11,228 bases of DNA from Candidatus Micrarchaeota archaeon (lineage in GTDB: Archaea > B1Sed10-29 > B47-G15). Positions within the stretch are counted from its first letter, which is position 1. Each line of letters begins with the position of its first letter. The position numbers were made by a program, and so were the translations under genes. The stretch spans positions 1 through 11,228 of the forward strand of contig QMVG01000014.1 of assembly GCA_003660975.1 (NCBI GenBank), given 5' to 3'. This document shows, one piece after another, positions 28 to 11,228 of the stretch. The notes beneath the pieces are model-generated. The model worked only from the letters and a program-made list of their open reading frames with translations, was not told the DNA's origin and ran no database searches.

Positions 28-455
28 ATTTCAATCCCTTATTCCTCAGGTCTAAACCTGGAAGAGTATGTAGTTGAAAACAGCCCCTTAGTCATTTCAA
101 TCCCTTATTCCTCAGGTCTAAACCGGAAGTAACCTCCGTTGTCACAGATAAGAAAACATCATTTCAATCCCTTATTCCTCAGGTCTAAACCGTGTGTGCG
201 TGCGTGTACATTTTCGGCGCACATACCATTTCAATCCCTTATTCCTCAGGTCTAAACCTCGATCATAGACTTGTACTGAGCCTTGGCTTGCTCATTTCAA
301 TCCCTTATTCCTCAGGTCTAAACTCGGCCAAAGTCAAGGAGCTGGAAGCAAAAACCTAAATTTCAATCCCTTATTCCTCAGGTCTAAACGCCTTCTCATC
401 TCCTGAGAGCACTCTACATACACCAATTTCAATCCCTTATTCCTCAGGTCTAAAC
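28..455 (-). CRISPR. CRISPR array, leader-proximal end; 7 repeats and 6 full spacers, probably continuing left of the window
   Basis: Identical 30-bp repeat ATTTCAATCCCTTATTCCTCAGGTCTAAAC at 28, 94, 161, 228, 294, 360 and 426, separated by unique 36-37 bp spacers; 1-27 is probably a partial spacer. The minus-strand form GTTTAGACCTGAGGAATAAGGGATTGAAAT ends in ATTGAAAN, typical of Cas6-processed type I-B/III repeats. Confidence 0.98.
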
Positions 456-700
456 CCATTTAAGTATGAGAACCTCTTATTCTTCTTTTCAAAGAGCACT
501 TCGGGACTTTTGATCCCGAATAAAATGTGTTCAGGAGTCCAAGCCTGTGAGATAAAAATTTAGACTTAAACCCGATTGTTGTCAACCCCCCAGGGATTCT
601 GCACTACCAGAGGTAGACACATAAAAATATGATCAGACAAACTTTTGGTAAGTTCTTGTGCTTCAATTCTAATAGACTTTTTTCAGAAAAAGTTTTCCGA
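456..700 (-). promoter_or_regulatory. CRISPR leader with sigma70-like promoter
   Basis: AT-rich and non-coding. Minus-strand TTGACA (585-580)-17 bp-TAAATT (562-557) points at the array. An imperfect dyad TGTCAACC...GGTAGACA (580-619) resembles the GTCGACC..TAGTG..GGTCGAC motif I recall from type I-B leaders. The right boundary is approximate. Confidence 0.75.
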
Positions 701-718
701 ATGCCTTAAGACGGGGAC

Positions 719-747
719 TTGACATTCCAAACTCGACCGCATATATT
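719..747 (+). promoter_or_regulatory. sigma70 promoter of the HTH-rep transcript
   Basis: TTGACA (719-724), 17-bp spacer, TATATT (742-747); GAGG RBS at 771-774 before the ATG at 780. Confidence 0.75.
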
Positions 748-779
748 AATAGCAACCATCTTTGCATTGCGAGGCTATT

Positions 780-1130
780 ATGGGGCTCGTAATCGGGAGA
801 AGCAACGCCATTTTAGGATATATCCTCCAACACGGGGAGACGGGAGTCGAAGCTGGCGAGATTGCGGAGGCTTTAGGGTTGAAGCCGAACTATGTCCGAG
901 CTGTCTTAGTCAGCCTCCGTGACCGGGGCGCTGTGCGCAAGGTGGGGAAGCGCTGGGTGCCTACCGAGGTCGGAATGAGGGAGGTGAAGGGGTTAGGGGA
1001 TATTGAAAGATTTAAGAAGGATAGTTCTAAGCTCTCTTGGGTCTTCTGGTTAGGTGTAGCCGTTTTCGTACTCATGGTGCTTTCCTCAAAGGATAAAGAG
1101 GAGGAAGAAAAGAGGGGGACTCATTCGTGA
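780..1130 (+). CDS. Winged-helix DNA-binding protein with C-terminal transmembrane helix
   Basis: AGEIAEALGLKPNYVRAVLVSLRDRGAVRKVGKRW is wHTH-like; hydrophobic segment LSWVFWLGVAVFVLMVL. Start moved from 762 to ATG 780 because of the RBS and promoter position. Confidence 0.75.
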   Translation: MGLVIGRSNAILGYILQHGETGVEAGEIAEALGLKPNYVRAVLVSLRDRGAVRKVGKRWVPTEVGMREVKGLGDIERFKKDSSKLSWVFWLGVAVFVLMVLSSKDKEEEEKRGTHS

Positions 1131-1181
1131 GCCCCCCGGAAGGAGGCACAAAACTTGTGCCTGCCCCCAGCTACGCACCTG
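1107..1181 (-). ncRNA. Putative antisense (countertranscript) RNA, about 75 nt
   Basis: Minus-strand promoter TTGCGC (1216-1211)-17 bp-TATTTT (1193-1188); internal hairpin AGGCACAA/TTGTGCCT (1144-1162); terminator hairpin 1114-1137 followed on the minus strand by TCTTTTC. Ends are approximate. Confidence 0.55.
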
Positions 1182-1218
1182 TCTCTAAAAATACACAAGA
1201 TTGGGGGCGAGCGCAAGT

Positions 1219-1256
1219 GCCTCCTTCCGGAAATGGTGGAAGGAGGCTTTCTTGTT
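1219..1256 (+). terminator. Conditional terminator/SD-sequestering hairpin (attenuator)
   Basis: Perfect 10-bp stem GCCTCCTTCC (1219-1228)/GGAAGGAGGC (1238-1247) followed by TTTCTTGTT. The 3' arm contains the SD AAGGAGG. It is mutually exclusive with the perfect 14-bp pairing 1136-1149/1217-1230. Confidence 0.7.
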
Positions 1257-2085
1257 GCAGGTCAAGAGCTACGAAAGATTAAATCAAGAGGTCCTCAGAA
1301 GAAGCGAAGCTCGACAGTACCGCCTCTGGTTGTTGCTCCGGGCTCTGGACCTCGAAGGGAGGGGGTGGATTAACTATAAAGAAGCTCAAAAAGCTTTCCT
1401 TGCCCTCGGCCTTTCCCGGCGGTCCTTCAGGGATGTGCTTCGGAAAGGGGAAAGCCTTTGGTGGACCCGGGGGTCGAATAGGATCTTCTATGCTTCCTTA
1501 GGAAAGGTTTGTTCCCGTCTACGGGTATTACCGGGACGACCTATTGTAATACCTCTCGATTCCCTTAGGAAGCTTTCGACCTTTAAGGGGGTTCTGTACG
1601 CCTCCTTTTTCACAAGGGAAAGGACCATCAGTCGGGCCCGGTTGATGGAGTTATGGGGAGTTTCCAGGACAACCCTTCGGCGTTGGGAGAGGGCTACTGG
1701 CATTAGAATTCAGCAGAATTATGCTCGTTCGTCCAAGCCGTTCTCGGCGGGAAGGTCTTCTGGTAGACGGCTTATTGTAGGTTCCGAGGAGGAAAACGGG
1801 GGGCCTTACTGGGAGGTTGTTCTGGATAGGAAGCGGTATTTAGCGTGGCAGATTCCGAATTCTTACATCTATTTAGGGACGGAGTTCGCCTACGCACCCT
1901 ATGGCCTTGCTCGAAAGGTGAGGAAGAGGCTCACACCTCCTGAAGGTGGCGGGGGGTACCTGAGGCTCTACTTCCGGAGGCCGAGGGATGCGTACAGGTA
2001 TCTTAGGAGGCAAGGAGAGGGTGTATACCTCTTCGATAGAAAGGCCCCGTGGGGGCGTCTGTGGGTACATCTGTCTTTAGCATAG
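1255..2085 (+). CDS. Putative HTH-containing replication initiator (Rep-like), very basic
   Basis: HTH-like ISRARLMELWGVSRTTLRRWE followed by QQNY and WQIPNSY; Arg-rich. Start moved from 1201 to the in-frame TTG at 1255 (or 1252) after SD AAGGAGG 1240-1246. Rep function is inferred from the leader architecture. Confidence 0.5.
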   Translation: MQVKSYERLNQEVLRRSEARQYRLWLLLRALDLEGRGWINYKEAQKAFLALGLSRRSFRDVLRKGESLWWTRGSNRIFYASLGKVCSRLRVLPGRPIVIPLDSLRKLSTFKGVLYASFFTRERTISRARLMELWGVSRTTLRRWERATGIRIQQNYARSSKPFSAGRSSGRRLIVGSEEENGGPYWEVVLDRKRYLAWQIPNSYIYLGTEFAYAPYGLARKVRKRLTPPEGGGGYLRLYFRRPRDAYRYLRRQGEGVYLFDRKAPWGRLWVHLSLA

Positions 2086-2210
2086 GTGGCAGATTTTGTG
2101 CCCCCTAGAGGGTGGTGGTGCAAAGAGGGAACAGAATACAGAAATGAGAAATTCTCTAACTACCTTGGTATAGAATCGGGATCGTATTCAGAAAACCTCT
2201 AGGTATTGAG

Positions 2211-2354
2211 TTGCAGCTCTACTTTAGTGGTTTATGCACGTCCGGGTTCAGAAGCAAGGGTTCTGGGTGCAAGCTCTATCTTGCCGAAAGTTACCGAACG
2301 GATGGCAGGGTTAAGCAGAGGAAGATTTACCTGGGAACTCTTCCAGGGAATTGA
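2211..2354 (+). pseudogene. Micro-ORF or frameshifted remnant with an IS1634-N-terminus-like beta-strand DNA-binding motif
   Basis: Frame 2211-2354 encodes ...KLYLAESYRTDGRVKQRKIYLG...; ATG 2234 (MHVRVQKQG) joins this frame if one base is removed. It is below the ORF-track cutoff. Confidence 0.45.
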
Positions 2355-2380
2355 CGTAGGGCTTCGATCGCTCCAGCGTC

Positions 2381-2713
2381 TCAGACATATTCACTCCTTT
2401 CTTCTTTTTCTATCCTCTCTACCGAGCATCCGTCCTCAAGGCACCTCTCGCAGACCCTAAGCGCAACGTCCCTGGACGAAGCTTTAACCTCCACAGGAAA
2501 GCGCACATCCCCTATCCTAACCCACACGATGAACTCCCCGTCGTCCCACGAAAGGCCATTTTCTTCCTTCACCCTTTCCTTGATCCTCTTTATCCTGTAC
2601 AAAGCATCCTGAACCTCGAAAAAAATCTGGGTAAGGGGCTTCCTCTTCTTTCCTACATACCTTCCGTTTACCTCCGAAAGAAGGTGGTTTGCTAGGATTT
2701 CCGTTGTGGTCAC
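2381..2713 (-). CDS. Hypothetical protein (110 aa)
   Basis: The GTG start overlaps the upstream stop (GTGA); last gene of the ATPase operon. Confidence 0.7.
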   Translation of the reverse strand: MTTTEILANHLLSEVNGRYVGKKRKPLTQIFFEVQDALYRIKRIKERVKEENGLSWDDGEFIVWVRIGDVRFPVEVKASSRDVALRVCERCLEDGCSVERIEKEERSEYV

Positions 2714-2943
2714 GACTTCCTCCTTAAAATCTCCCTTAGGTACCTTTCTGTATTAGGTCTTATGGCCTCCACGGCCTTCAGGACCCTTTCCCTATCCCCG
2801 GGAAGGAAATCCTTGGAAGACGCCCACCTGTCGAAGGCCGTCTTCATATCTCCCCCGAACCTTCCCCAATAGGAAAGGAAGCTTTCGGCCTGGTGCAGGA
2901 CGTCTTCAAAACGGCTTGATTTAGCCTGCTTTTCAACCCCCAT
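2710..2943 (-). CDS. Hypothetical protein (77 aa)
   Basis: Overlaps the ATPase end by 11 nt and the next gene by 4 nt, consistent with a translationally coupled operon. Confidence 0.7.
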   Translation of the reverse strand: MGVEKQAKSSRFEDVLHQAESFLSYWGRFGGDMKTAFDRWASSKDFLPGDRERVLKAVEAIRPNTERYLREILRRKS

Positions 2944-4033
2944 GTTTGAGCCAGTTGATTACGGTAGCCTTGCTCACTCCCAGCCTTTTCGCAATCTTCC
3001 CATAAGAAAGTCCCGCATCTCTCCAGGCCTTCGCCTGCCTCTTCTTTTCCTCCTTCGAAGCGGAAGGAGGTCTTTGAGCAGGGGACGATATCCCTTGGGA
3101 GTAAGCTCGGCTAAGCTCCTCACTCCAATACGAAGGAAGAGGAGTCTCCAGAGGACCTTCAAAATGAACCTCTGGAGACCAGACATAACACCATCCCCTC
3201 TTATCTCCTGTCCTCTCCTGGAAGAAATCCCTGGCCCTCTTTAAAACTTCTTTGAGCTCCGGTCTCTCAAACTTGACCTCCATAGCCCCCGGCTCTTTGA
3301 ACAAAAACAGGTTGGCATACCCCACAATATTCTTGTCCAGGTGCCTTGCCTCGTGAGCCACGAACAGTATGGAGTACCCTCTTTGCCGGGCAAGACCCAA
3401 AGCCCTGGACATCTCCTGAATGCTCTCATCAAAGCTGCTCTTCCTTGCGTGATAGAGCAGATAGGCCTCGTCCACCAAGACGATGGAGTCCGGGGGTACC
3501 TCATCAAAGTGCCTGGCGAGACCGATCCACTCTGGCAAGAGAGCCTTCTTCTCCTCTGGGAATCCCAGGACATAAGGGGTCATCTTCCACCTATAAAGCT
3601 CTAAAAGCATGTGCCCCGTGGCGGACTTACCCGACCCGGGTGCTCCCAAAATCAAACCCCTTGCGAACTCTGGCATGATCTTAAACCACTGGGAAGCCGA
3701 TAGCTCTGAGGGAGCCCCTTTTCTAGGTTCAGGTAAGGGCTGTGACTGAGCGGCCACTTGCGCTTCCAGCTCCTCTATTTGACTTCGGAGCCAGTCGTTC
3801 TCCTGTTGGAGCCGGGAGACCTCCTGCTGGAGCTCCTGCTTCTCAGACCATATTTTCAGGTAAGATAACGCAAGCTGGACTAGCTTCTGCCGAAGATACT
3901 GGATCTCCCGCTGGGCTTGCTGGAGGGCTTGGGTAAAGCTCACCGCCGTCTCAGCCATAGGAACGCCTAACTTCTCCCCCAACAAACCCCAGCCGAAAAT
4001 CTTGGCCACCTTTACCAGGGGATGATCTGGCAT
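2933..4033 (-). CDS. Coiled-coil + P-loop ATPase (Zot/FtsK-HerA-like) + C-terminal HTH
   Basis: Gln/Glu-rich heptad region, Walker A GAPGSGKS, Walker B VLVDEA, ARQRG motif, and C-terminal HTH GLSYGKIAKRLGVSKATVINWL. Start moved to ATG 4033 behind SD AGGAGGTGA. Confidence 0.8.
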   Translation of the reverse strand: MPDHPLVKVAKIFGWGLLGEKLGVPMAETAVSFTQALQQAQREIQYLRQKLVQLALSYLKIWSEKQELQQEVSRLQQENDWLRSQIEELEAQVAAQSQPLPEPRKGAPSELSASQWFKIMPEFARGLILGAPGSGKSATGHMLLELYRWKMTPYVLGFPEEKKALLPEWIGLARHFDEVPPDSIVLVDEAYLLYHARKSSFDESIQEMSRALGLARQRGYSILFVAHEARHLDKNIVGYANLFLFKEPGAMEVKFERPELKEVLKRARDFFQERTGDKRGWCYVWSPEVHFEGPLETPLPSYWSEELSRAYSQGISSPAQRPPSASKEEKKRQAKAWRDAGLSYGKIAKRLGVSKATVINWLKHGG

Positions 4034-4047
4034 AGTCACCTCCTCTC

Positions 4048-4118
4048 GGTCAAAGAGCTGACCGGCCCCGGTCAAAAATCCGAAAGTTGACCCTTTTTGA
4101 CCGATTTGACCCGGTCAA
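4048..4118. repeat. Cluster of seven TGACC/GGTCA motifs (putative protein-binding array)
   Basis: GGTCAA at 4048, 4070 and 4113; CTGACC at 4058; TTGACC at 4087, 4097 and 4106, in direct and inverted orientation just upstream of the ATPase RBS. Confidence 0.7.
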
Positions 4119-4164
4119 GGACACATATCTATTGAGATTTGCGTTAAACATGACTCGGGATTTC

Positions 4165-4242
4165 GGGTATCGGTTGGTGGGTATGCGAAGTTGCCGAAGG
4201 CAATTTGGGTGAGCGAAGCGAACCGCATACTTGCTTTTATAC
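4165..4242 (-). other. attC-like site C (degenerate, terminal)
   Basis: Minus strand GTATAAA-AGCAA-GTATGCG...CTCACCCAAATTGCCTTCGGCAACTT-CGCATAC-CCACCAACC-GATACCC. R'' has AAC>AAA and R' reads GAT at the GTT position. Confidence 0.7.
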
Positions 4243-4261
4243 GCCTGTGCCGTGCCAGCTT

Positions 4262-5890
4262 TTATTCTTTCCATCTCCTTTTTATCTCAATACCTGGTAG
4301 GTATTTCAATAAAATCACATTCAAGTTGTTTCCTGAATATTCCCATACGTATCTGTAATCACCCTCAACTTTTGTTAGCTTCTCCTTGTTTCTTGAATCC
4401 CATGCTATGATTAGAGATGTTTGTTCTGGAACATGGTCATGATCCGAGTAATTTTCTAAAATGTATTCAACTTCTACAGCTTGGAATAACTTTTTCTCTG
4501 AATGCTCTTTTTCCTGATATTCCGCAATGATATCTATTCCCTTCTGAGCGGTGTGTTCTAAAGTTTTGAAATAATAGAAAGGCAAAGCATTTAAGGTCTC
4601 CAATTTCCAAAGCAATGCTCTGACATCCTGCTCATTTTCAGGTTCTTTATGTAATAATTCTTCTTTGTAAAAGACCCAACGATCCTTCCTCATTAATTCA
4701 TCCTTTCTTTGGTTAAGTGTCTCTGCTAAATCCTTTTTCTTTAAATCTCGGCGATACTTAACCCATTCTTTGTAGTCTTTGGTTTCCATTACTTTTCTAA
4801 AAGCTTCCCGGAGAGCAGCGGTGAATAGCGGTTCTTTTACACCATCAGAAACTCTGCTTCTTGCGATATCTGTCTCAACATCATCGCATTCTACAACGAA
4901 CCTGCAGAACTTGTAATATAAGTCAAATCCTTGGGGTTTATATCGGTTAAAATCTAAGTTAAAGTATGGTATTCCTTTCCATGCGTAAGTCAAGCCAACA
5001 CCCTTGCTCTCTAAAATACCATAATCACTCATCCCGAATTCACTCGTCTTTAATGCATATCCTCCCTTTAAAATCACTGTAACCTTATTCCCTTTTTTGT
5101 CTTCTTTAGTTATTTCTATAGGAGGTTCTATAACTCCTATTTTTTGACCTTCTACATGATCCCCTTCCTTTCGTATCCAAGGAAATCCAATTTTTAACTC
5201 CTCTCCATCTGGGATAGCAGGTGTTTTTATTATGATCTTAGGGAAGCCCTCGCGTAGTCTTTCTGGTCGGGTGTATCCTATTAGAGTTCTGAAGTAGAGA
5301 TACTTCTTTAGTTTCTCTGCATCTTCATATTCTGGGTATTTAATTCCACCGTCATACCCACAAACTCTAATAATAGTTCCGTGAGGGAAATCTAATGCTT
5401 CAGGTGGTAACTTATAAATAAGAGGTTTAGGCATTTCAGGTTTCTCTTTTTTAAGGAGTTTACCTATTGGATCGTGAACTTCCACTTTATGGCATTCTCC
5501 TTCATATGTTTTTGTTTCGATTTCAAGCTTTTTACATAAATACATGAGTTTTGAACCAAGACCTTTGAACCCAAACTCATCTGCTTGAATTCCAGCAACC
5601 CCACTGTATGCTAAATTTAGAAACCTATCTAAGCGTCCTTGTTTTTCTGGCTCCTTTTTACCTGTATAATTCATTCCTATGCCATCATCTTCAAAAATAA
5701 ATGACCAACCATATGTTCCATCATAGAAAATGGTTATTTCAAAACAGGTTGCTTTTACTTCTTTAGCACACGAGTTAGATAAGGCTTCTCTTATTATATC
5801 CAGTGGGTTAGCCCTATTTTGAACAACTTGCTTTATTATGGCTATTCCAATTGATATTTCATGCTCCTTAGGCTCATACACCTCGTTCAT
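4262..5890 (-). CDS. GHKL (HSP90/MutL/MORC-like) ATPase with C-terminal putative PD-(D/E)xK-like nuclease domain; cassette 3
   Basis: Bergerat motifs IIREALSNS, EDDGIGM, GFKGLGSK and HGT; C-terminal EPENEQDV..GIDII..VEVEY..DHDH..IIAWD; SD AAGGAGG. Confidence 0.8.
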   Translation of the reverse strand: MNEVYEPKEHEISIGIAIIKQVVQNRANPLDIIREALSNSCAKEVKATCFEITIFYDGTYGWSFIFEDDGIGMNYTGKKEPEKQGRLDRFLNLAYSGVAGIQADEFGFKGLGSKLMYLCKKLEIETKTYEGECHKVEVHDPIGKLLKKEKPEMPKPLIYKLPPEALDFPHGTIIRVCGYDGGIKYPEYEDAEKLKKYLYFRTLIGYTRPERLREGFPKIIIKTPAIPDGEELKIGFPWIRKEGDHVEGQKIGVIEPPIEITKEDKKGNKVTVILKGGYALKTSEFGMSDYGILESKGVGLTYAWKGIPYFNLDFNRYKPQGFDLYYKFCRFVVECDDVETDIARSRVSDGVKEPLFTAALREAFRKVMETKDYKEWVKYRRDLKKKDLAETLNQRKDELMRKDRWVFYKEELLHKEPENEQDVRALLWKLETLNALPFYYFKTLEHTAQKGIDIIAEYQEKEHSEKKLFQAVEVEYILENYSDHDHVPEQTSLIIAWDSRNKEKLTKVEGDYRYVWEYSGNNLNVILLKYLPGIEIKRRWKE

Positions 5891-5919
5891 ATTTCATCCT
5901 CCTTGTAGCACGGCATGGC

Positions 5920-6001
5920 GTATAACGTTCCGAGTGTATCTGAAGTCATACGAAGCAGGGTTTGGGCGGAGCGAAGCGTAGCCGTATATCCGCTGTTATA
6001 C
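5920..6001 (-). other. attC-like site B
   Basis: Minus strand R'' GTATAAC (6001-5995) ... R' GTTATAC (5926-5920); shares the GCTTCGCTC..CCCAAA..ACTTC core with sites A and C. Confidence 0.85.
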
Positions 6002-6025
6002 GCCGTGCCGTAATCCTTGGTTCAT

Positions 6026-6904
6026 TTATTCCTCCGATAACTTTGAAATTCTATCAAATTCCTCCCGTAACTTTTTATATACTTCATCTAATTCCTCTGC
6101 TTTACCAGCTAAATTTTTAAAGTGGGTTTTGTAAAATACTCGCCATACTTCATCAACTTCTCTGAACCGTTGTGAGAGCCTCAAGATGTCATTTTTTACT
6201 TTTTCCGCCTTTTCTGAAAGTTTCTTTGCATGAACTCCAGCTTTTATGAGTTCGACTTTGTGCGATAGGGTTAGTGGCGATACTACTTGGACTCCATTTT
6301 TTGTATATTCGCGAAGCAATCCAAAATATTCATTTATTAGGAACCAATAAACACCCTCTGACGGAATGAAGGCAAAGGCAAAATCTGCAGAGCCTTTTTC
6401 AGGACAGACATAATCGCTAGCTATTTTATCCAAATGACCTTTTACATCTCTGAGAAATTGCCTTTTGAACTTCTCTTTTTCCTGGGGGTCATCACTTTCC
6501 ATAATCTTCCTGTAATTCTCTAATGGAAATTTGGAGTCTATACAAATAATGCCAACCGTTGATTTAATATAAGCATCTGGGGTTTTACCCTCAAGAACCT
6601 TTTCTCTAATCCCAAACATATCTGGAGGGAGTTGATCAGAAAGGATAGTTTCGAGAGCTATCTCACCGAATGCTCCCCTTTCAGCAGGCACTCTAAGCAT
6701 TTGCTCAATAGATTTATGTGTTTCTTTTATTTCTTTAGCATGGGTAGCCAATTCCCCTACTTTATCACTTAATCCAGATTCTTTCCATACCCTAAGTATG
6801 GCAGTTTCTATATCTTGCGGTTTAACTTTTACCTTTCTGAGTGAAAGGATGATTAATATGCCTAAGAGTACTATGATTGCTCCAAGTAAAATTTCTATTA
6901 TCAT
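6026..6904 (-). CDS. rmuC: RmuC-family protein (N-terminal TM anchor, PD-(D/E)xK domain); cassette 2
   Basis: RGAFGEIALETIL, PDAYI, IDSKFPL, FIPSEG and VSPLTL are RmuC hallmark motifs; hydrophobic N-terminus; SD AGGAGG. Confidence 0.88.
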   Translation of the reverse strand: MIIEILLGAIIVLLGILIILSLRKVKVKPQDIETAILRVWKESGLSDKVGELATHAKEIKETHKSIEQMLRVPAERGAFGEIALETILSDQLPPDMFGIREKVLEGKTPDAYIKSTVGIICIDSKFPLENYRKIMESDDPQEKEKFKRQFLRDVKGHLDKIASDYVCPEKGSADFAFAFIPSEGVYWFLINEYFGLLREYTKNGVQVVSPLTLSHKVELIKAGVHAKKLSEKAEKVKNDILRLSQRFREVDEVWRVFYKTHFKNLAGKAEELDEVYKKLREEFDRISKLSEE

Positions 6905-6939
6905 ATTCCCTCCTGTTTCATGATTCTTTTAGGCATGGC

Positions 6940-7025
6940 GGATAACGTCCCGGCGGGTATCTGAAGTCGCCGAAGGCGATTTGGGTGAGGGCTGAAAGCC
7001 TGAACCAGATACCCGCCTGTTAGGC
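6940..7025 (-). other. attC-like site A
   Basis: Minus strand GCCTAAC-A-GGCGGGTATCTG...CAGATACCCGCC-GGGAC-GTTATCC: a perfect 12-bp inner stem between RYYYAAC and GTT cores. Confidence 0.88.
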
Positions 7026-7092
7026 GTGGGCAATAGCCCCGAAATGAGCGAAAGCGAACGGAGAGTTGGTTGCGGCATAATTTTTAGGGAAT

Positions 7093-7365
7093 TCATTCTT
7101 TCACCATTTTATGCTTATTTGGATCATATAATTCATACGTTCCATCTTCATGGAGCAATAAAAACGGCTCGACATGAGGCCAATGTCTTCGTGCTGGTGG
7201 TAAATTTACCACTAAAGCCATTAAATGCTGGTATATAGTATCATCTTTCCAGTTACCTTTATTTCTAACTCTTCTGAAGAGTTCACTAAAAGTTACCACC
7301 TCTCCAAGTTCTAAACTATTTCTTATAGCTTCTTTACATGATTCACCAAACTTACCTTTTCCCAT
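7093..7365 (-). CDS. Small hypothetical protein, wHTH-like (resembles DUF7669 from memory); cassette 1
   Basis: 90-aa ORF with strong SD AAGGAGG; it fills the cassette between GTTAGGC (7420) and attC A; pattern TFSEL..TIYQHL..VN...GTYELY. Confidence 0.8.
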   Translation of the reverse strand: MGKGKFGESCKEAIRNSLELGEVVTFSELFRRVRNKGNWKDDTIYQHLMALVVNLPPARRHWPHVEPFLLLHEDGTYELYDPNKHKMVKE

Positions 7366-7413
7366 TTTACCTTACCTCCTTCTTTGATATTTTTCAACGC
7401 CGCAACCGATTAC

Positions 7414-7468
7414 GCCTAACTACAGGATAAACGAAGTACTTCGTTTTGCGAAGTACTTCGTTTATTCT
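7414..7468 (-). other. attI-like cassette insertion site with adjacent double palindrome
   Basis: Minus strand GTTTATC-CTGTA-G|TTAGGC (L, 5 bp, R). It is preceded by 17-bp inverted arms 7427-7443/7449-7465 built from two copies of the palindrome CGAAGTACTTCG. It lacks the attC family core. Confidence 0.6.
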
Positions 7469-7629
7469 CAAATGAAGGAGGCTTCCCTCGCCATTTCCAC
7501 CCCGATCATTGAACGAAAAAACGTAAAGCTTACACCTTTACACCCCCTCAGCATTTCGAGTATATCATACCACCCCTTCCGTACCAAATATGATAGGGCC
7601 TTACACTTTTCTATATCTTCCCACATCAT
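7468..7629 (-). CDS. 53-aa ORF, possibly a truncated HxlR/ArsR-like wHTH
   Basis: ATG 7629 overlaps the AAA stop (ATGA); MMWEDIEKCKALSYLVRKGWYDILEMLRGCKGVSFTFFRSMIGVEMAREASFI ends at the edge of the double palindrome. Not in the ORF track. Confidence 0.45.
   Translation of the reverse strand: MMWEDIEKCKALSYLVRKGWYDILEMLRGCKGVSFTFFRSMIGVEMAREASFI
7559..7587 (-). promoter_or_regulatory. Candidate Pc-like promoter for the cassette array
   Basis: TTGGTA (7587-7582)-17 bp-TATACT (7564-7559) with a TGn extension, about 140 bp upstream of the first cassette; it lies inside the 53-aa ORF. Confidence 0.45.
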
Positions 7630-8594
7630 AACGACACCCCCTGTCGCTTCATAACTTCAACTACCACTTCGGCCTTCTCCTTTTCGCCGTTCGCCATCCT
7701 TGCTATGCTTACACACTGCCTTACATCGGACTTGTTCCCGTACATGTTCCAAACGGAAAGGGCTATGAATTCGGCTACATCCTCCGGGACCCCTTCTCTT
7801 TCGAGGACCGACTTAGAAACCTTTAGAAACTCGTCCCTCGAATAGGGTTCGAACCTTATCTTGATGAACCGTGAAAGGAGGTCCCGTGGTAGGGAATTCA
7901 CCTTTATCCCCGCCGCGAATACCTTCGTGTAAAGTACGGCATAGCGGGTTTTCCCCCACTTCGTCTCGCTTATCCTTCCCGTAGCCATAAGGCTATTGAG
8001 GACGCCTAAATTATCCCCGTGTAGGCGATCTATCTCGTCTATGAGTAGATACTTGGGCTGGAGCGCAAACAGGACCTCGTTAAGCCCTGCACTCGTCATG
8101 GTGGGGGCAAGCAGGTAGTAGCTTTCGGGAAGGCGGGAAAGTTCCATCAGAAACAGCGTCTTTGCCGAAGCCGGAGGCCCTACCAATAGCACATGACAGG
8201 GACGCTCCGACTCTATCGCGTAGCGCAGGACGGTCTTCACGTTCTTATGTCCAACGATTATCTCGAAAAGATCGTTGGGAACCTCGCTTTCGGGTTGTAC
8301 TTCTATCCCCGAAGCCTCTATCTCGTCTATCACCTCCCTTATAAGGTCCCTATCCCGAAGGACGTACGAAGTGCTCGAACGACTTGCGTACACTATGTCA
8401 AGTATCCTTTTGGACACCATATTGTTCAACACTTGGGGTGGGGTGTGGACTTCGTACCACTCCCACCCCAAGTAATTGTGTCCCTTTTCTTCGGCCTCCT
8501 TCCGGCCCTTCTCCTCGACTTCGAGGGCCTCCTTAAGTGTTTCCACCCAATCGGGATTTTCGGCAAGTAACAGCTTAAGTTCCAACTTCCTCAT
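7626..8594 (-). CDS. AAA+ ATPase (RuvB/MoxR-like core) with N-terminal wHTH-like domain
   Basis: Walker A GPPASAKT, Walker B LLIDEID, Arg finger LLSRF, sensor-2 DVRQ; IIVGH N-linker; SD GGGGAGTGA. Confidence 0.85.
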   Translation of the reverse strand: MRKLELKLLLAENPDWVETLKEALEVEEKGRKEAEEKGHNYLGWEWYEVHTPPQVLNNMVSKRILDIVYASRSSTSYVLRDRDLIREVIDEIEASGIEVQPESEVPNDLFEIIVGHKNVKTVLRYAIESERPCHVLLVGPPASAKTLFLMELSRLPESYYLLAPTMTSAGLNEVLFALQPKYLLIDEIDRLHGDNLGVLNSLMATGRISETKWGKTRYAVLYTKVFAAGIKVNSLPRDLLSRFIKIRFEPYSRDEFLKVSKSVLEREGVPEDVAEFIALSVWNMYGNKSDVRQCVSIARMANGEKEKAEVVVEVMKRQGVSL

Positions 8595-8650
8595 ATCACT
8601 CCCCTAAAAAGGAAGCACTGAAGCACCAAAGCACTTTAAGGAAGCGAGGA

Positions 8651-9202
8651 TTATTCATCATCTACGCCTAGAACAAGAACAGGGATATCTATCTCACTTT
8701 CCCCTCTGTGAACTAGGTCGGCTTTAACCTGCTCGAAGTAAGAAACACCTGTGGACATCTGTCTTGCCATGTTAAGCATAGGGACAATTTCAACACCTGA
8801 ATCTATGAGTCCAGAGTTATGGAATATCGTCATTTTAGCAAGGATATTATAGACCATAAAAGCATACTTGCCAAATTGGATCTCCACGCCTAAGCCGTTT
8901 TTGAAAGCATCCATCTCCCGAGGGCCTTCATGGATCCTCCCTATTTCTGGGATTTCGACTCTAAGAATAACCCTTCCTTTTTCCCATCCTCTCTTTCTAA
9001 ATTCTTCTTCAAATCTTTCGTTTAGAGCTTTAGGAGAATAGAGAACTCTTCCCATCATTGTCTTCTCCTTACTGATCTTAGTCTTAAGTTTCGAGGCTTT
9101 TATAGCTTCTATTATTTCCTCTATCTCTTGGTATTCTTGGGGGTGATGTTCCCTTATGAATTCCTCTCCTCCTCTGTGCGAATACTTCGCTACAATTTTC
9201 AT
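8651..9202 (-). CDS. Type II restriction endonuclease, BglII/BstYI family
   Basis: YSH..G N-terminus, LN..F...GW, and D-x8-E-I-Q-F-G-K with Gln in place of the catalytic Lys, as in BglII. Start moved to ATG 9202 (ATGA overlap with the MTase stop, SD GGAGG). Confidence 0.88.
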   Translation of the reverse strand: MKIVAKYSHRGGEEFIREHHPQEYQEIEEIIEAIKASKLKTKISKEKTMMGRVLYSPKALNERFEEEFRKRGWEKGRVILRVEIPEIGRIHEGPREMDAFKNGLGVEIQFGKYAFMVYNILAKMTIFHNSGLIDSGVEIVPMLNMARQMSTGVSYFEQVKADLVHRGESEIDIPVLVLGVDDE

Positions 9203-10188
9203 GTCCGCCTCCACTCAAGGGGTATTTGGGCCACTTTCTCTGTTCCTTTTGGCTCATACTTTGGTTTGCCTAAAGGCCTTCTTCTAAGTGTCCCGTTTAA
9301 GGCTTGGATTACTCTTTCATGTGCTATCTTCACATAAACTTCCTCTTTGTCCACTCCTATAGCTCTCCGATCGTGGAGCAGGGCGGCAATAAGAGAAGAC
9401 CCTACCCCCATGAAGGGATCAAAAACTATATCATCCGGATTTGTTAATGCTAAGATCAATCTCTCTACAAGTTCTATAGGAAATTGAGAGGGATGGATTG
9501 TTTTCTCAGGATGGTTTGCTTTGACATTAGGTATATCCCAAACTTCTTCTTCCCATTCTTTAAGAAGAAAATCCCAGATATCTCCTGGGTTCTTCCCAAG
9601 GGGATTCGCGGAAGGTTCCCCTTTGTGCGGTCCTTTGTAATGCCTCTTTCCTGGATATTTCTGGGGAATCCTCACCGGATCAAGATTAAATACATATTCA
9701 TCACCCTTTGTAAACCAAAGGATAACTTCATAACGACCAGAAAACCTTCTTTTGGCATGAAGTCCATGCTCAAATCTCCAGATGATTCTATTACGAAGCT
9801 TTAAACCGAGCTTTTCCTTTAGGATTTGGTAAAAAAAGACATCGAGAGGAAAAACTTCCCCTGAGTTCACGTGATTACCTACTTCCCAGCATAGACTTCC
9901 TTCAGGCTTAAGTATCCTCACACACTCACGTAAGACATTAGTTTGCCATTCAAGATATCTCCGAAACTCTATCTTTTTTTCGTAAGGCTTCCCAATGTTA
10001 TAAGGGGGTGAGCTTACTACAAGCTGAATGCTTTCGTTCGGAATTGTCCGCGTAAAAGCGAGAGTATCGTTGCATGAAAGGAGTACATCGAACTCAGGAA
10101 CGAAGTATAAGCTTTGTATAATCTTTTTATTCCTTCCCAATATTTCTGGAAATTCAGCCTGTAACTTTCTGCGTCTTTTTTCTTCCAT
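9199..10188 (-). CDS. Beta-class amino DNA methyltransferase (probably N4-cytosine)
   Basis: Motif IV SSPPY lies N-terminal, with HPSQFP and motif I DPFMGVGS C-terminal (beta order); coupled to the REase. Confidence 0.93.
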   Translation of the reverse strand: MEEKRRRKLQAEFPEILGRNKKIIQSLYFVPEFDVLLSCNDTLAFTRTIPNESIQLVVSSPPYNIGKPYEKKIEFRRYLEWQTNVLRECVRILKPEGSLCWEVGNHVNSGEVFPLDVFFYQILKEKLGLKLRNRIIWRFEHGLHAKRRFSGRYEVILWFTKGDEYVFNLDPVRIPQKYPGKRHYKGPHKGEPSANPLGKNPGDIWDFLLKEWEEEVWDIPNVKANHPEKTIHPSQFPIELVERLILALTNPDDIVFDPFMGVGSSLIAALLHDRRAIGVDKEEVYVKIAHERVIQALNGTLRRRPLGKPKYEPKGTEKVAQIPLEWRRT

Positions 10189-10702: not shown

Positions 10703-11228
10703 TTAATCCTCAAACTCCACCTGTTGCTGGATCCTCAGGGAATCCTCTTGGGTGAGGGTAGAAAGGTACCTCATCACCATAACGGTCGAGGAATGGCCAA
10801 GGTGGTGTTGGAGGGCCTTGGGGTTTCCAGTCTGGCGGAGCCTTTCGATTGCGTCCGAATGCCTCAATAGATGAGGATAGACCCTCTTTTGGATCCCTGC
10901 TCTTGCTGCAAGCTCTTTAAGGATTTGCCAGGCTCTTTGTCTGTTTATAGGAAAGAACTTATCCTTCGGTCCAAGGCCCTTCTTGTAAGCATAGGCTCTG
11001 AGTTTATCAGCTAATCTCTCAGGACAAGCAACGAGCCTCAGCTTCCTTCCCTTTCCCAAGACCTCCAGAGCTGGCTTTCCTTCAAATTCCCTGATACTGG
11101 AAGGTGTCAAAGACAGAGCCTCGGATATCCTCAGCCCCGTCTGATATAGGACCTGAATCAATAGTGCGTCCCTTTCGCCTTTCCTTGGCCTCCTCTTTGC
11201 CTCCTCGACGAGGAGCTTGACCTCCTCC
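10703..11228 (-). CDS. Tyrosine recombinase/integrase (XerC/D-like catalytic domain), 5' end outside the window
   Basis: TGLRISE (R), GKG (K), HLLRH, LGH and MRY (Y). The frame stays open to the window edge (EEVKLLVEEAKRRPRKGERDALL). Confidence 0.95.
   Translation of the reverse strand, partial: EEVKLLVEEAKRRPRKGERDALLIQVLYQTGLRISEALSLTPSSIREFEGKPALEVLGKGRKLRLVACPERLADKLRAYAYKKGLGPKDKFFPINRQRAWQILKELAARAGIQKRVYPHLLRHSDAIERLRQTGNPKALQHHLGHSSTVMVMRYLSTLTQEDSLRIQQQVEFED

Follow-up and report, generated by a model that had tools for sequence, protein, structure and literature searches.

The stretch of DNA considered here (the window) is contig QMVG01000014.1, 11,228 nt long, from an archaeon classified as Candidatus Micrarchaeota; it is one complete 11.2-kb contig (C14) of a 1.33-Mb metagenome-assembled genome (MAG) that comprises 130 contigs and is 89.7% complete. 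Between positions 4161 and 7420 it very probably harbors an integron-type array of three gene cassettes without an integrase of its own, in other words a group of clustered attC sites that has no integron integrase (CALIN). The assignment is based on the AAC...GTT cores of the sites, their covarying inner helix, the complementary ends of the cassettes, and the lack of an intI gene. A CALIN has been defined as two or more attC sites that are spaced by less than 4 kb and have no intI nearby (PMC9668308); the window has three such sites, with GTT-to-GTT spacings of 1020 and 1755 nt, and no intI was found either in the 11.2-kb contig or in the MAG. Integrase-less cassette arrays of this kind are known.

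The array is read from the minus strand and consists of three co-oriented open reading frames (ORFs), each followed, 16–64 nt behind its stop codon and in the same orientation, by an imperfect, GC-rich palindrome of about 86–94 nt (Table 1). The three palindromes, termed sites C, B and A in the order of reading, align with a mean column identity of 73%. The GC content of the ORFs is 35–37%, compared to 46–50% for the flanks and 43.5% for the genome. The G of the 3' core is found at 7420, in a half-site ahead of the first ORF, and again at 6946, 5926 and 4171, where the last core reads GAT, not GTT. The half-site GTTAGGCGT is complementary to ACGCCTAAC at the end of cassette 1 (7019–7027, read 7027->7019); cassette 2 starts with GTTATCCGCCATGCC at 6946 and ends with GGCACGGCGTATAAC (6009->5995), while cassette 3 starts with GTTATACGCCATGCCGTGC at 5926 and ends with GCACGGCACAGGCGTATAAA (about 4256->4237). 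Counted by eye, these pairs of ends match at 9/9, 13/15 and about 16/20 positions. The original prediction, drawn from the letters of the sequence, had quoted cassette-end strings, and all of them are present on the minus strand. Its central claims, namely three related attC-like sites, one per ORF, complementary cassette ends and an integron-type array without an integron integrase, have stood up, with all matches to the canonical IntI model (TIGR02249) across the MAG falling below the cut-off.

The three sites belong to a larger family. A profile of the window sites (nhmmer) was followed by a covariance model, R1, built from six copies in the archaeon's own genome, and 76 sites from 41 sources were aligned to it. 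The general form is ..YTAAC-A-[11-bp helix]-core CGCTTCGCTC.CCCAAAT-[small hairpin]-ACTTC-[helix]-nnnAC-GTTA..., about 86 nt in all. Both sides vary in 18 of the 20 model pairs, and 89.8% of the structure cells are paired, compared to 65.5% in shuffles, in an alignment that was fitted to the model and thus favors structure. The covariation score was 0.576, against 0.162 when shuffled (a value of 0.576 was reached by 0/500 shuffles), and 0.05–0.10 when the partners were slid. In the inner helix, all 11 pairs vary on both sides and 90.1% of cells are paired, with slid-partner controls at 23.5–41.5%. AAC is found in 68 of the 76 sites and GTT in 67; sites C and B of the window have both, while site A has AAA and GAT. 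The most common forms of R' are GTTATAC (15), GTTAGGC (7), GTTATAT (6) and GTTAAGT (5), and the core-to-core length ranges from 74 to 113 nt, with a median of 86.5. Within 250 nt upstream, 52 sites have the end of a co-oriented ORF and 17 an ORF on the opposite strand; four have no ORF and three lie at the end of the locus. Textbook attC sites have extrahelical bases in the L box or inner helix. The present family, by comparison, lacks an inner-helix bulge and instead has a constant asymmetric internal loop between the outer and inner helices, with 1 nt (A) on the 5' side in 57/76 sites and 5 nt (nnnAC) on the 3' side in 50/76. Within the window, site C scores 72.9 bits with R1, coincides with inverted repeat I20, and has single-strand fold z-scores of -3.07 and -3.23. 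Site B scores 79.4 bits; the arms of its inverted repeat I4 (5910–5926/5995–6011) are 94% complementary, and its fold is moderate (z -2.09 and -2.98).

The complementarity of cassette ends also holds outside the window. For 33 pairs of successive sites, the 5 nt behind the upstream GTT were compared with those ahead of the next AAC (likewise 5 nt, taken as the reverse complement). The mean match was 3.18 of 5, against 2.41 for random pairing, and none of 10,000 permutations reached it (p<1e-4; n=33). The two ends of a single site, on the other hand, match at the level of chance (mean 2.52, p 0.33), significantly less well than the cassette ends (Wilcoxon p 0.011). That cassette ends pair while own-site ends do not is the footprint of recombination at GTT, by which units of ORF plus site were moved. 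A self-contained palindrome would not be expected to show this pattern.

The RmuC cassette of the window (cassette 2) has a 71%-identical copy in the genome of an archaeon from another family (G031:C22), where it lies between two sites of the same family beside hisD (histidinol dehydrogenase). The cassette ends are the same, and the neighboring genes are different. The DNA similarity between the window and G031 jumps from the family level to 83% exactly at GTTAT(C/A)CGCCATGCC, covers the whole gene, and stops within the 5' half of the site behind it. The presence of an RmuC cassette with the same ends in two unrelated archaeal families is taken as direct evidence that cassettes have moved between archaea. 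The original prediction had the cassettes being harvested from an integron pool, which would fit with the shared RmuC cassette. The same comparison shows site B to be a hybrid: its 5' half matches the RmuC cassette's own site, and its 3' half is similar to that of the site ahead of RmuC in G031. In the inner helix of site B, only 6/11 positions pair (by eye). This suggests that the exchange took place not at GTT but inside the conserved loop core, with homologous recombination as one possible route.

Assembled contigs from four metagenome runs, each from a different study (X1–X4), show the same sequences in other combinations. In each run, 14–18 contigs pass from the 5' half of site B to the cognate, G031-type 3' half at position 5961, and contigs break inside the sites. 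One 4464-nt contig from X3 shares the right flank down to 7413 and continues with 1050 nt unlike the window; separate contigs from X3 and X4 carry cassette 1 as far as 7420/7421. These contigs fit with the 7420 junction having different neighbors, which is short of proof of excision. No contig in the four runs joins 4171 to 7420, so an empty site was not seen, and the parts that are not covered prove nothing in this respect. (Five joints in the run contigs are not taken as excisions: they link look-alike parts of different sites, and have sides of 20–42 nt or other letters in between.)

Table 1. Features of the array and of its surroundings in the window.
Feature	Position	Strand	Description
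AAA_5 ATPase gene	7626–8594		Upstream of the array
Hairpin	7424..7468	-	Perfect, 17–20 bp; followed by TGTA, then by the first GTT
Half-site GTTAGGCGT	7412..7420 (read 7420->7412)	-	Start of cassette 1; putative crossover G|TT between 7420 and 7419
Cassette 1	6946..7419	-	ORF 7093–7365 (90 aa, sub-threshold DUF7669 match) plus site C
Site C	6936..7029	-	Best kept; perfect 12-bp inner helix 6952–6963/7006–7017; two small loop hairpins
Cassette 2	5926..6945	-	ORF 6026–6904 (RmuC family, 292 aa; membrane helix at the N-terminus) plus site B
Site B	5916..6005	-	Chimeric; 17-bp outer inverted repeat
Cassette 3	4171..5925	-	ORF 4262–5890 (542 aa, predicted MORC/Hsp90-like GHKL ATPase) plus site A
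Site A	4161..4246	-	Terminal, decayed; 5' core TATAAA vs TATAAC; 3' triplet GAT (4171–4169) vs GTT, then ACCCGAAAT
Tyrosine recombinase fragment	10703–11227		PF00589, 79.7 bits; C-terminal 174 aa, runs off the contig end

How would such an array have arisen? By analogy with integrons, each site would fold as a single-stranded hairpin, a tyrosine recombinase would cut at G|TT, and a circular cassette would be inserted or excised. With a cut at G|TT, the bases directly behind each GTT are part of the following cassette and complementary to the far end of that same cassette. Since each cassette in the window pairs with its own far end, serial single insertions are favored, most likely at the junction ...TGTAG|TT behind the hairpin at 7424–7468. 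The left junction of the array reads hairpin-TGTA-G|TTAGGCGT and the right one site A-G|ATACCCGAAAT; G|TT on the left and G|AT on the right is the pattern expected when the first cassette enters a G|AT target. The oldest insertion would thus have been into a genomic G|AT, which survives at 4171, and later cassettes would have entered at the left G|TT. The recombinase must either have acted in trans or have been lost since. The array is now probably static, because there is no matching integrase in the 90%-complete MAG, site A has no GTT, and the chimeric site B no longer pairs.

The site family is sparse within the genome, with only 10 copies in the 1.33-Mb MAG according to R1: three on C14, two on C118, and one each on C2, C15, C3, C1 and C33. 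The sites on C118 likewise separate small co-oriented ORFs. Single cassettes are found on C3 beside dph5 (diphthine synthase), GlyRS and TrpRS, and on C2 beside Dph2 (arCOG04112) and TruD; these are archaeal-type genes, which places the family in plainly archaeal chromosome pieces of the MAG. Among 100 related archaeal genomes, 20 have R1 matches (E<=0.01): none of the 17 from the same order, three of 13 from the same class, and 17 of the 70 related at the domain level only. The spread of the family is thus patchy. The longest arrays have eight co-oriented sites (G035:C15). In X1–X4, the bins of the window (3800–7700) that contain the three sites had a summed contig depth of about 140–9700, compared to about 4–240 for the gene bins, an excess that indicates that the family is highly repeated in these hydrothermal and sediment metagenomes. 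No Rfam family matched the sites at E<=1 (the only match was at chance level and outside the region), and nothing in the phage records matched the array.

The cassettes carry three genes. The 292-aa ORF encodes an RmuC-family nuclease (Pfam, 9.2e-39, 133.7 bits); PADLOC matched it weakly (29.5 bits) to RTasRmuC, the RmuC partner of a defense reverse transcriptase. The 542-aa protein has a weak match to HATPase_c_3 (16.5 bits), and its AlphaFold2 model (pLDDT, the predicted local distance difference test, 85.6) retrieved MORC3, MORC4, Hsp90 and GyrB in Foldseek at E of about 1e-11. It is thus predicted from the model to be a GHKL ATPase with a transducer domain like those of MORC3/4, Hsp90 and GyrB, with the last ~140 residues left without assignment. 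It has 562 homologues, many of them 70–88% identical, in MAGs labelled both bacterial and archaeal; it has no relative in the 100 related genomes, and none in the PDB by sequence. (On an Aminicenantes contig, a homologue is positioned after McrBC-like genes, and a Methanophagales copy of the gene has, by eye, short look-alike strings at both ends.) The 90-aa protein matches DUF7669 at 18.8 bits, below the cut-off of 23. PADLOC returned nothing for the 90-aa and 542-aa proteins. A role in defense, as had been proposed for the cargo, is therefore plausible but no more than a reasonable guess.

The flanks of the array have a character of their own. Just downstream of site A, a gene at 2933–4075 encodes a 380-aa protein that has a coiled coil, a C-terminal helix-turn-helix and, by eye, a putative P-loop; it matched no family, and no relative was found on viral contigs. 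The 3' part of this gene is found on two metagenome contigs (1060 and 1710 nt) that are 98–99% identical, neither of which reaches the array junction. On the other side, beyond the AAA_5 ATPase, positions 8651–10188 are occupied by a BglII-family restriction endonuclease (92.1 bits) and, in a 16-nt overlap with it, an N6/N4 DNA methylase (191.5 bits), followed by a 142-aa ORF without a known family. An array of clustered regularly interspaced short palindromic repeats (CRISPR) occupies positions 1–470, with seven 30-nt repeats starting at 28, 94, 161, 228, 294, 360 and 426, and there is no cas gene in the window. With its restriction-modification genes and CRISPR array, the contig as a whole looks like a defense island. 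The 380-aa and AAA_5 proteins have only 28–30%-identical relatives in the 100 genomes; the lack of close relatives fits with accessory DNA and does not define an element.

Is the array then the cargo of a larger mobile element? The original prediction had placed it inside an integrative element that itself collects cassettes from an integron pool, the integrase being the tyrosine recombinase at the right end of the window. Besides that recombinase fragment, the points in favor of such an element are the restriction-modification and AAA_5 genes between it and the array, flanks that are richer in GC than the genome and that lack close relatives, and a CRISPR array at the opposite end of the contig, suggestive of an accessory or defense region. 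The window did not bear this out, however. The recombinase is a 174-aa fragment cut by the contig end, 3.3 kb and four genes away from the array, with weak XerA and TIGR02249 scores; there is no tRNA gene in the window, and no att repeats or element ends are visible, the ends lying outside the contig. Moreover, in other genomes, sites of the family stand between housekeeping genes, not in elements. An element of this kind is therefore unlikely.

A slightly less likely possibility is that C14 was mis-binned and is a piece of another organism or a plasmid, in which case the array would not have been shown to be in the archaeon's own genome. The GC content of the flanks and the CRISPR repeat, which is on no other contig, point in this direction, as do the flank genes, which are absent from the 17 genomes of the same order, and the 542-aa protein, which has close relatives in MAGs labelled Clostridiales, Aminicenantes and Dehalococcoidia. 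On the other hand, the same site family is found on long contigs of the MAG beside Dph2 and dph5 and in 20 other archaeal genomes, and the closest RmuC cassette is in an archaeal genome. In any case, mis-binning would affect which host the array is assigned to and leave its nature as it is. Finally, the repeats could be palindromes similar to repetitive extragenic palindromes (REP) or miniature inverted-repeat transposable elements (MITEs), or transcription terminators, that spread alone without moving genes along—they are GC-rich, structured and intergenic, some copies are solitary, and many metagenome contigs lie on them or break inside them—but this has largely been refuted and is highly improbable, considering the pairing of intervening cassette ends with own-site ends at chance, the joint movement of RmuC and the site behind it, the homology of which begins precisely at GTT, the mere 10 copies per 1.33 Mb, the 52/76 sites behind a co-oriented ORF, the copy at the position of a class 1 attC, and the lack of an Rfam family.

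If the window is an integrase-less cassette array, which recombinase made it? Canonical IntI (TIGR02249, cut-off 265 bits) was found neither in the MAG nor in 60 relatives or seven further site-bearing relatives (0/1, 0/60 and 0/7), and thus in none of the 21 site-bearing genomes (the MAG plus 20 relatives). The best match in the MAG scores 77.8 bits, and all good matches skip profile positions from about 180 to 236. The fragment in the window is Xer-like, scoring 99.3 bits with archaeal XerA (cut-off 220) and 51.5 bits with TIGR02249, and does not have the IntI insertion. (The MAG has another tyrosine recombinase, of 216 aa and with a catalytic domain only, at G000:C22 1721–2371 (L018), on a GC-rich contig. 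It is not of the G031 type described below, being 35% identical over the catalytic part, and may stem from a different element or from a contig that was mis-binned.)

A better candidate comes from G031, the same genome that has the second RmuC cassette. On contig C32, a 349-aa recombinase lies directly upstream of an array, on the same strand and co-directional with its cassettes; in this array, a methylase and a CfrBI-type endonuclease come first, then a site, an ORF and another site. The best solved relative of this enzyme is VchIntIA (2a3v), at 161 bits, compared to 150 bits for XerA (structures 5hxy and 4a8e). Compared to VchIntIA, it has about 68 extra residues at the N-terminus, and only 20 in the region of the IntI-specific insertion, for which IntI has about 60. 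It scores 230 bits on TIGR02249, below the cut-off, and passes the NCBIfam archaeal XerA model ("tyrosine recombinase/integron integrase") with 237.6 bits against a cut-off of 220. Its likeness to the window fragment is weak (E 2e-7), and no enzyme of its type was found in the window or the MAG. Homologues (E<=1e-20) occur in 15 of 61 genomes around G031, so the gene is not a universal housekeeping gene there.

All four members read of the N-extended subfamily to which this enzyme belongs (G031, G107, G102 and a broken copy in G134) have, 90–130 nt past the end of the gene, a short hairpin followed by GAAnnA and GTTAnnnGAAAT. In G031, the start of the first cassette agrees at 9/11 positions with the far-end core of the family site that comes next. 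In G107, the match between the start at the docking site and the far-end core is 9/9, across a 7.3-kb block of six glycosylation genes that ends in a family site. (This block, at G107:C10 (L088) 9869–17224, includes a nucleotidyl transferase, two glycosyltransferases and a GH130 enzyme; its limits are GTTAGGCGA (docking site) and TCGCCTAAC (family site). It appears to be a single cassette, far above the usual cassette size, and an MNT/HEPN pair is the next cassette after it.) The head of the window array, made up of the hairpin, TGTA and GTTAGGCGTAAT, shares the layout "hairpin + 4–6 nt + GTTAnnnG.AAT" with the sites behind the recombinases of these four archaea; the likeness is in layout alone, the sequence of the window head being unlike that of the four docking sites. 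The hairpin itself is inverted repeat I1 (20 nt, 95% complementary; fold -18.1 kcal/mol, z -7.42), and may be a docking-site-like structure, a decayed site without a 5' core, or the terminator of the upstream AAA_5 gene. No such association was seen for the ordinary Xer genes of eleven other genomes: with the filters of R1 switched off, no family site was found beside those of G005, G010, G044, G045, G049, G051, G054, G067, G072, G088 and G091 or beside the C22 gene of the MAG, the best scores being 9–14 bits on short palindromes.

The best candidate for the recombinase would thus be an IntI-like enzyme without the IntI-specific insertion, with canonical IntI as the alternative. A classification of tyrosine recombinases (PMC8138268) describes the insertion as "not fully conserved" in its integron-like subgroup, and has a "Cand" group of Xer-related enzymes from candidate phyla. 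No description of a short IntI-like platform was found in searches of the literature on integrons in DPANN archaea and the candidate phyla radiation, or on integron-like arrays with Xer-type recombinases. Taken together, it is quite possible, if not yet probable, that small-genome archaea have a separate integron-like system, with an IntI-like integrase of their own that lacks the insertion regarded as necessary for attC recombination, is co-directional with the cassettes, and docks at a short attC-like site 90–130 nt behind its stop codon. The window would then be an orphan array, the sites of which would still be usable by IntI1. If the IntI-like enzyme is indeed the recombinase, the IntI-specific insertion must be dispensable for cassette recombination.

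Several observations weigh against these interpretations. Two of the three window sites are damaged, site A having lost its GTT and site B being chimeric; site A scores 81.3 bits with R1, and its fold is no better than those of shuffles (z +0.39 and +0.93). Of the 76 aligned sites, just one has a single-base bulge in its inner helix. Three named genome loci carry the 542-aa gene (74–81% identical) without an R1 site. C14 is tied to the archaeon by binning and the shared site family only, and its CRISPR repeat is on no other contig of the MAG. As for the recombinase, the adjacency of the gene to a family site is seen at only two loci (G031 and G107), out of four genes, and the Xer-like gene lies away from all sites in the majority of the site-bearing genomes. 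No recombinase able to act on the sites was found in the MAG, which is 89.7% complete, so that the gene may be unassembled, and activity is unproven.

A link to bacterial integrons is provided by plasmids. In a blastn search of 72,556 plasmid records with site B, a single one, from Klebsiella pneumoniae (NZ_CP044036.1), gave a match, 77.5% identical over 74 nt. The matching site (L087:4993–5088; R1 70.2 bits) lies between the first cassette ORF and ere(B) in an intI1-attI1 array. R1 matched no other site in this class 1 integron, indicating a family-specific model. The core, the spacers and the orientation behind the ORF are the same as in the archaeal family, whereas the setting differs: the plasmid site is part of a complete mobile integron with IntI1, while the window has no integrase. 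By its sequence and position, this member of the family holds the attC place in a cassette that directly follows intI1-attI1 in a class 1 integron. The product of the first cassette (73482–74150 of the record) is the C-terminal piece of an R subunit of type I restriction (T1RH-like_C, 192 bits), which is at odds with the PLSDB RGI label of AAC(6')-Ib7 for the same coordinates. The class 1 member ties the environmental cassette pool to mobile integrons on a clinical Klebsiella plasmid, and if the sites are indeed those of a separate archaeal system, an archaeal cassette pool would be linked to clinical class 1 integrons.

How does the window compare to known systems? Integrons and CALINs were described in Archaea in 2022, in 75 MAGs from nine phyla, with six IntIs that have the IntI-specific domain, the majority being CALINs; Micrarchaeota are not named in the main text of that study (PMC9668308). 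In common with these CALINs, the window array has short ORFs in tandem, mostly co-oriented, with a folded site that has AAC and GTT behind each of them and no intI near. Sites are alike within a genome in both cases, and the cargo is of similar types: the published arrays are rich in restriction-modification and toxin-antitoxin genes, and the relatives described here carry CfrBI restriction-modification and MNT/HEPN pairs. They differ in two respects. The loop core of the present family (CGCTTCGCTC.CCCAAAT ... ACTTC) is shared across archaeal families, and canonical IntI is found in neither the MAG nor the 20 site-bearing relatives. Defense genes in integron cassettes have also been published (bioRxiv 2024.07.02.601719).

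The isolated position of the array likewise has a precedent. For genomic insertion sites of integron cassettes (attG), bioRxiv 2022.09.11.507474 gives a GWT consensus. As with attG insertions, single attC sites lacking integron integrases (SALINs) and small CALINs in that source, small arrays and single cassettes of the present family lie among ordinary genes, far from any integrase, and the outer junctions of the window, G|TT and site-G|AT, are as for a 5'-GWT-3' target. The route described there was demonstrated for IntI1, IntI2 and IntI3 in E. coli; the window differs from it in having its first junction directly after a strong hairpin, and an empty target was not recovered. By itself, the window thus represents one more integrase-less cassette array beside those already known in archaeal MAGs. 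The more novel point, which rests on the other genomes, concerns the cognate integrase: this may be IntI-like but devoid of the insertion that is the hallmark of the integron integrases.

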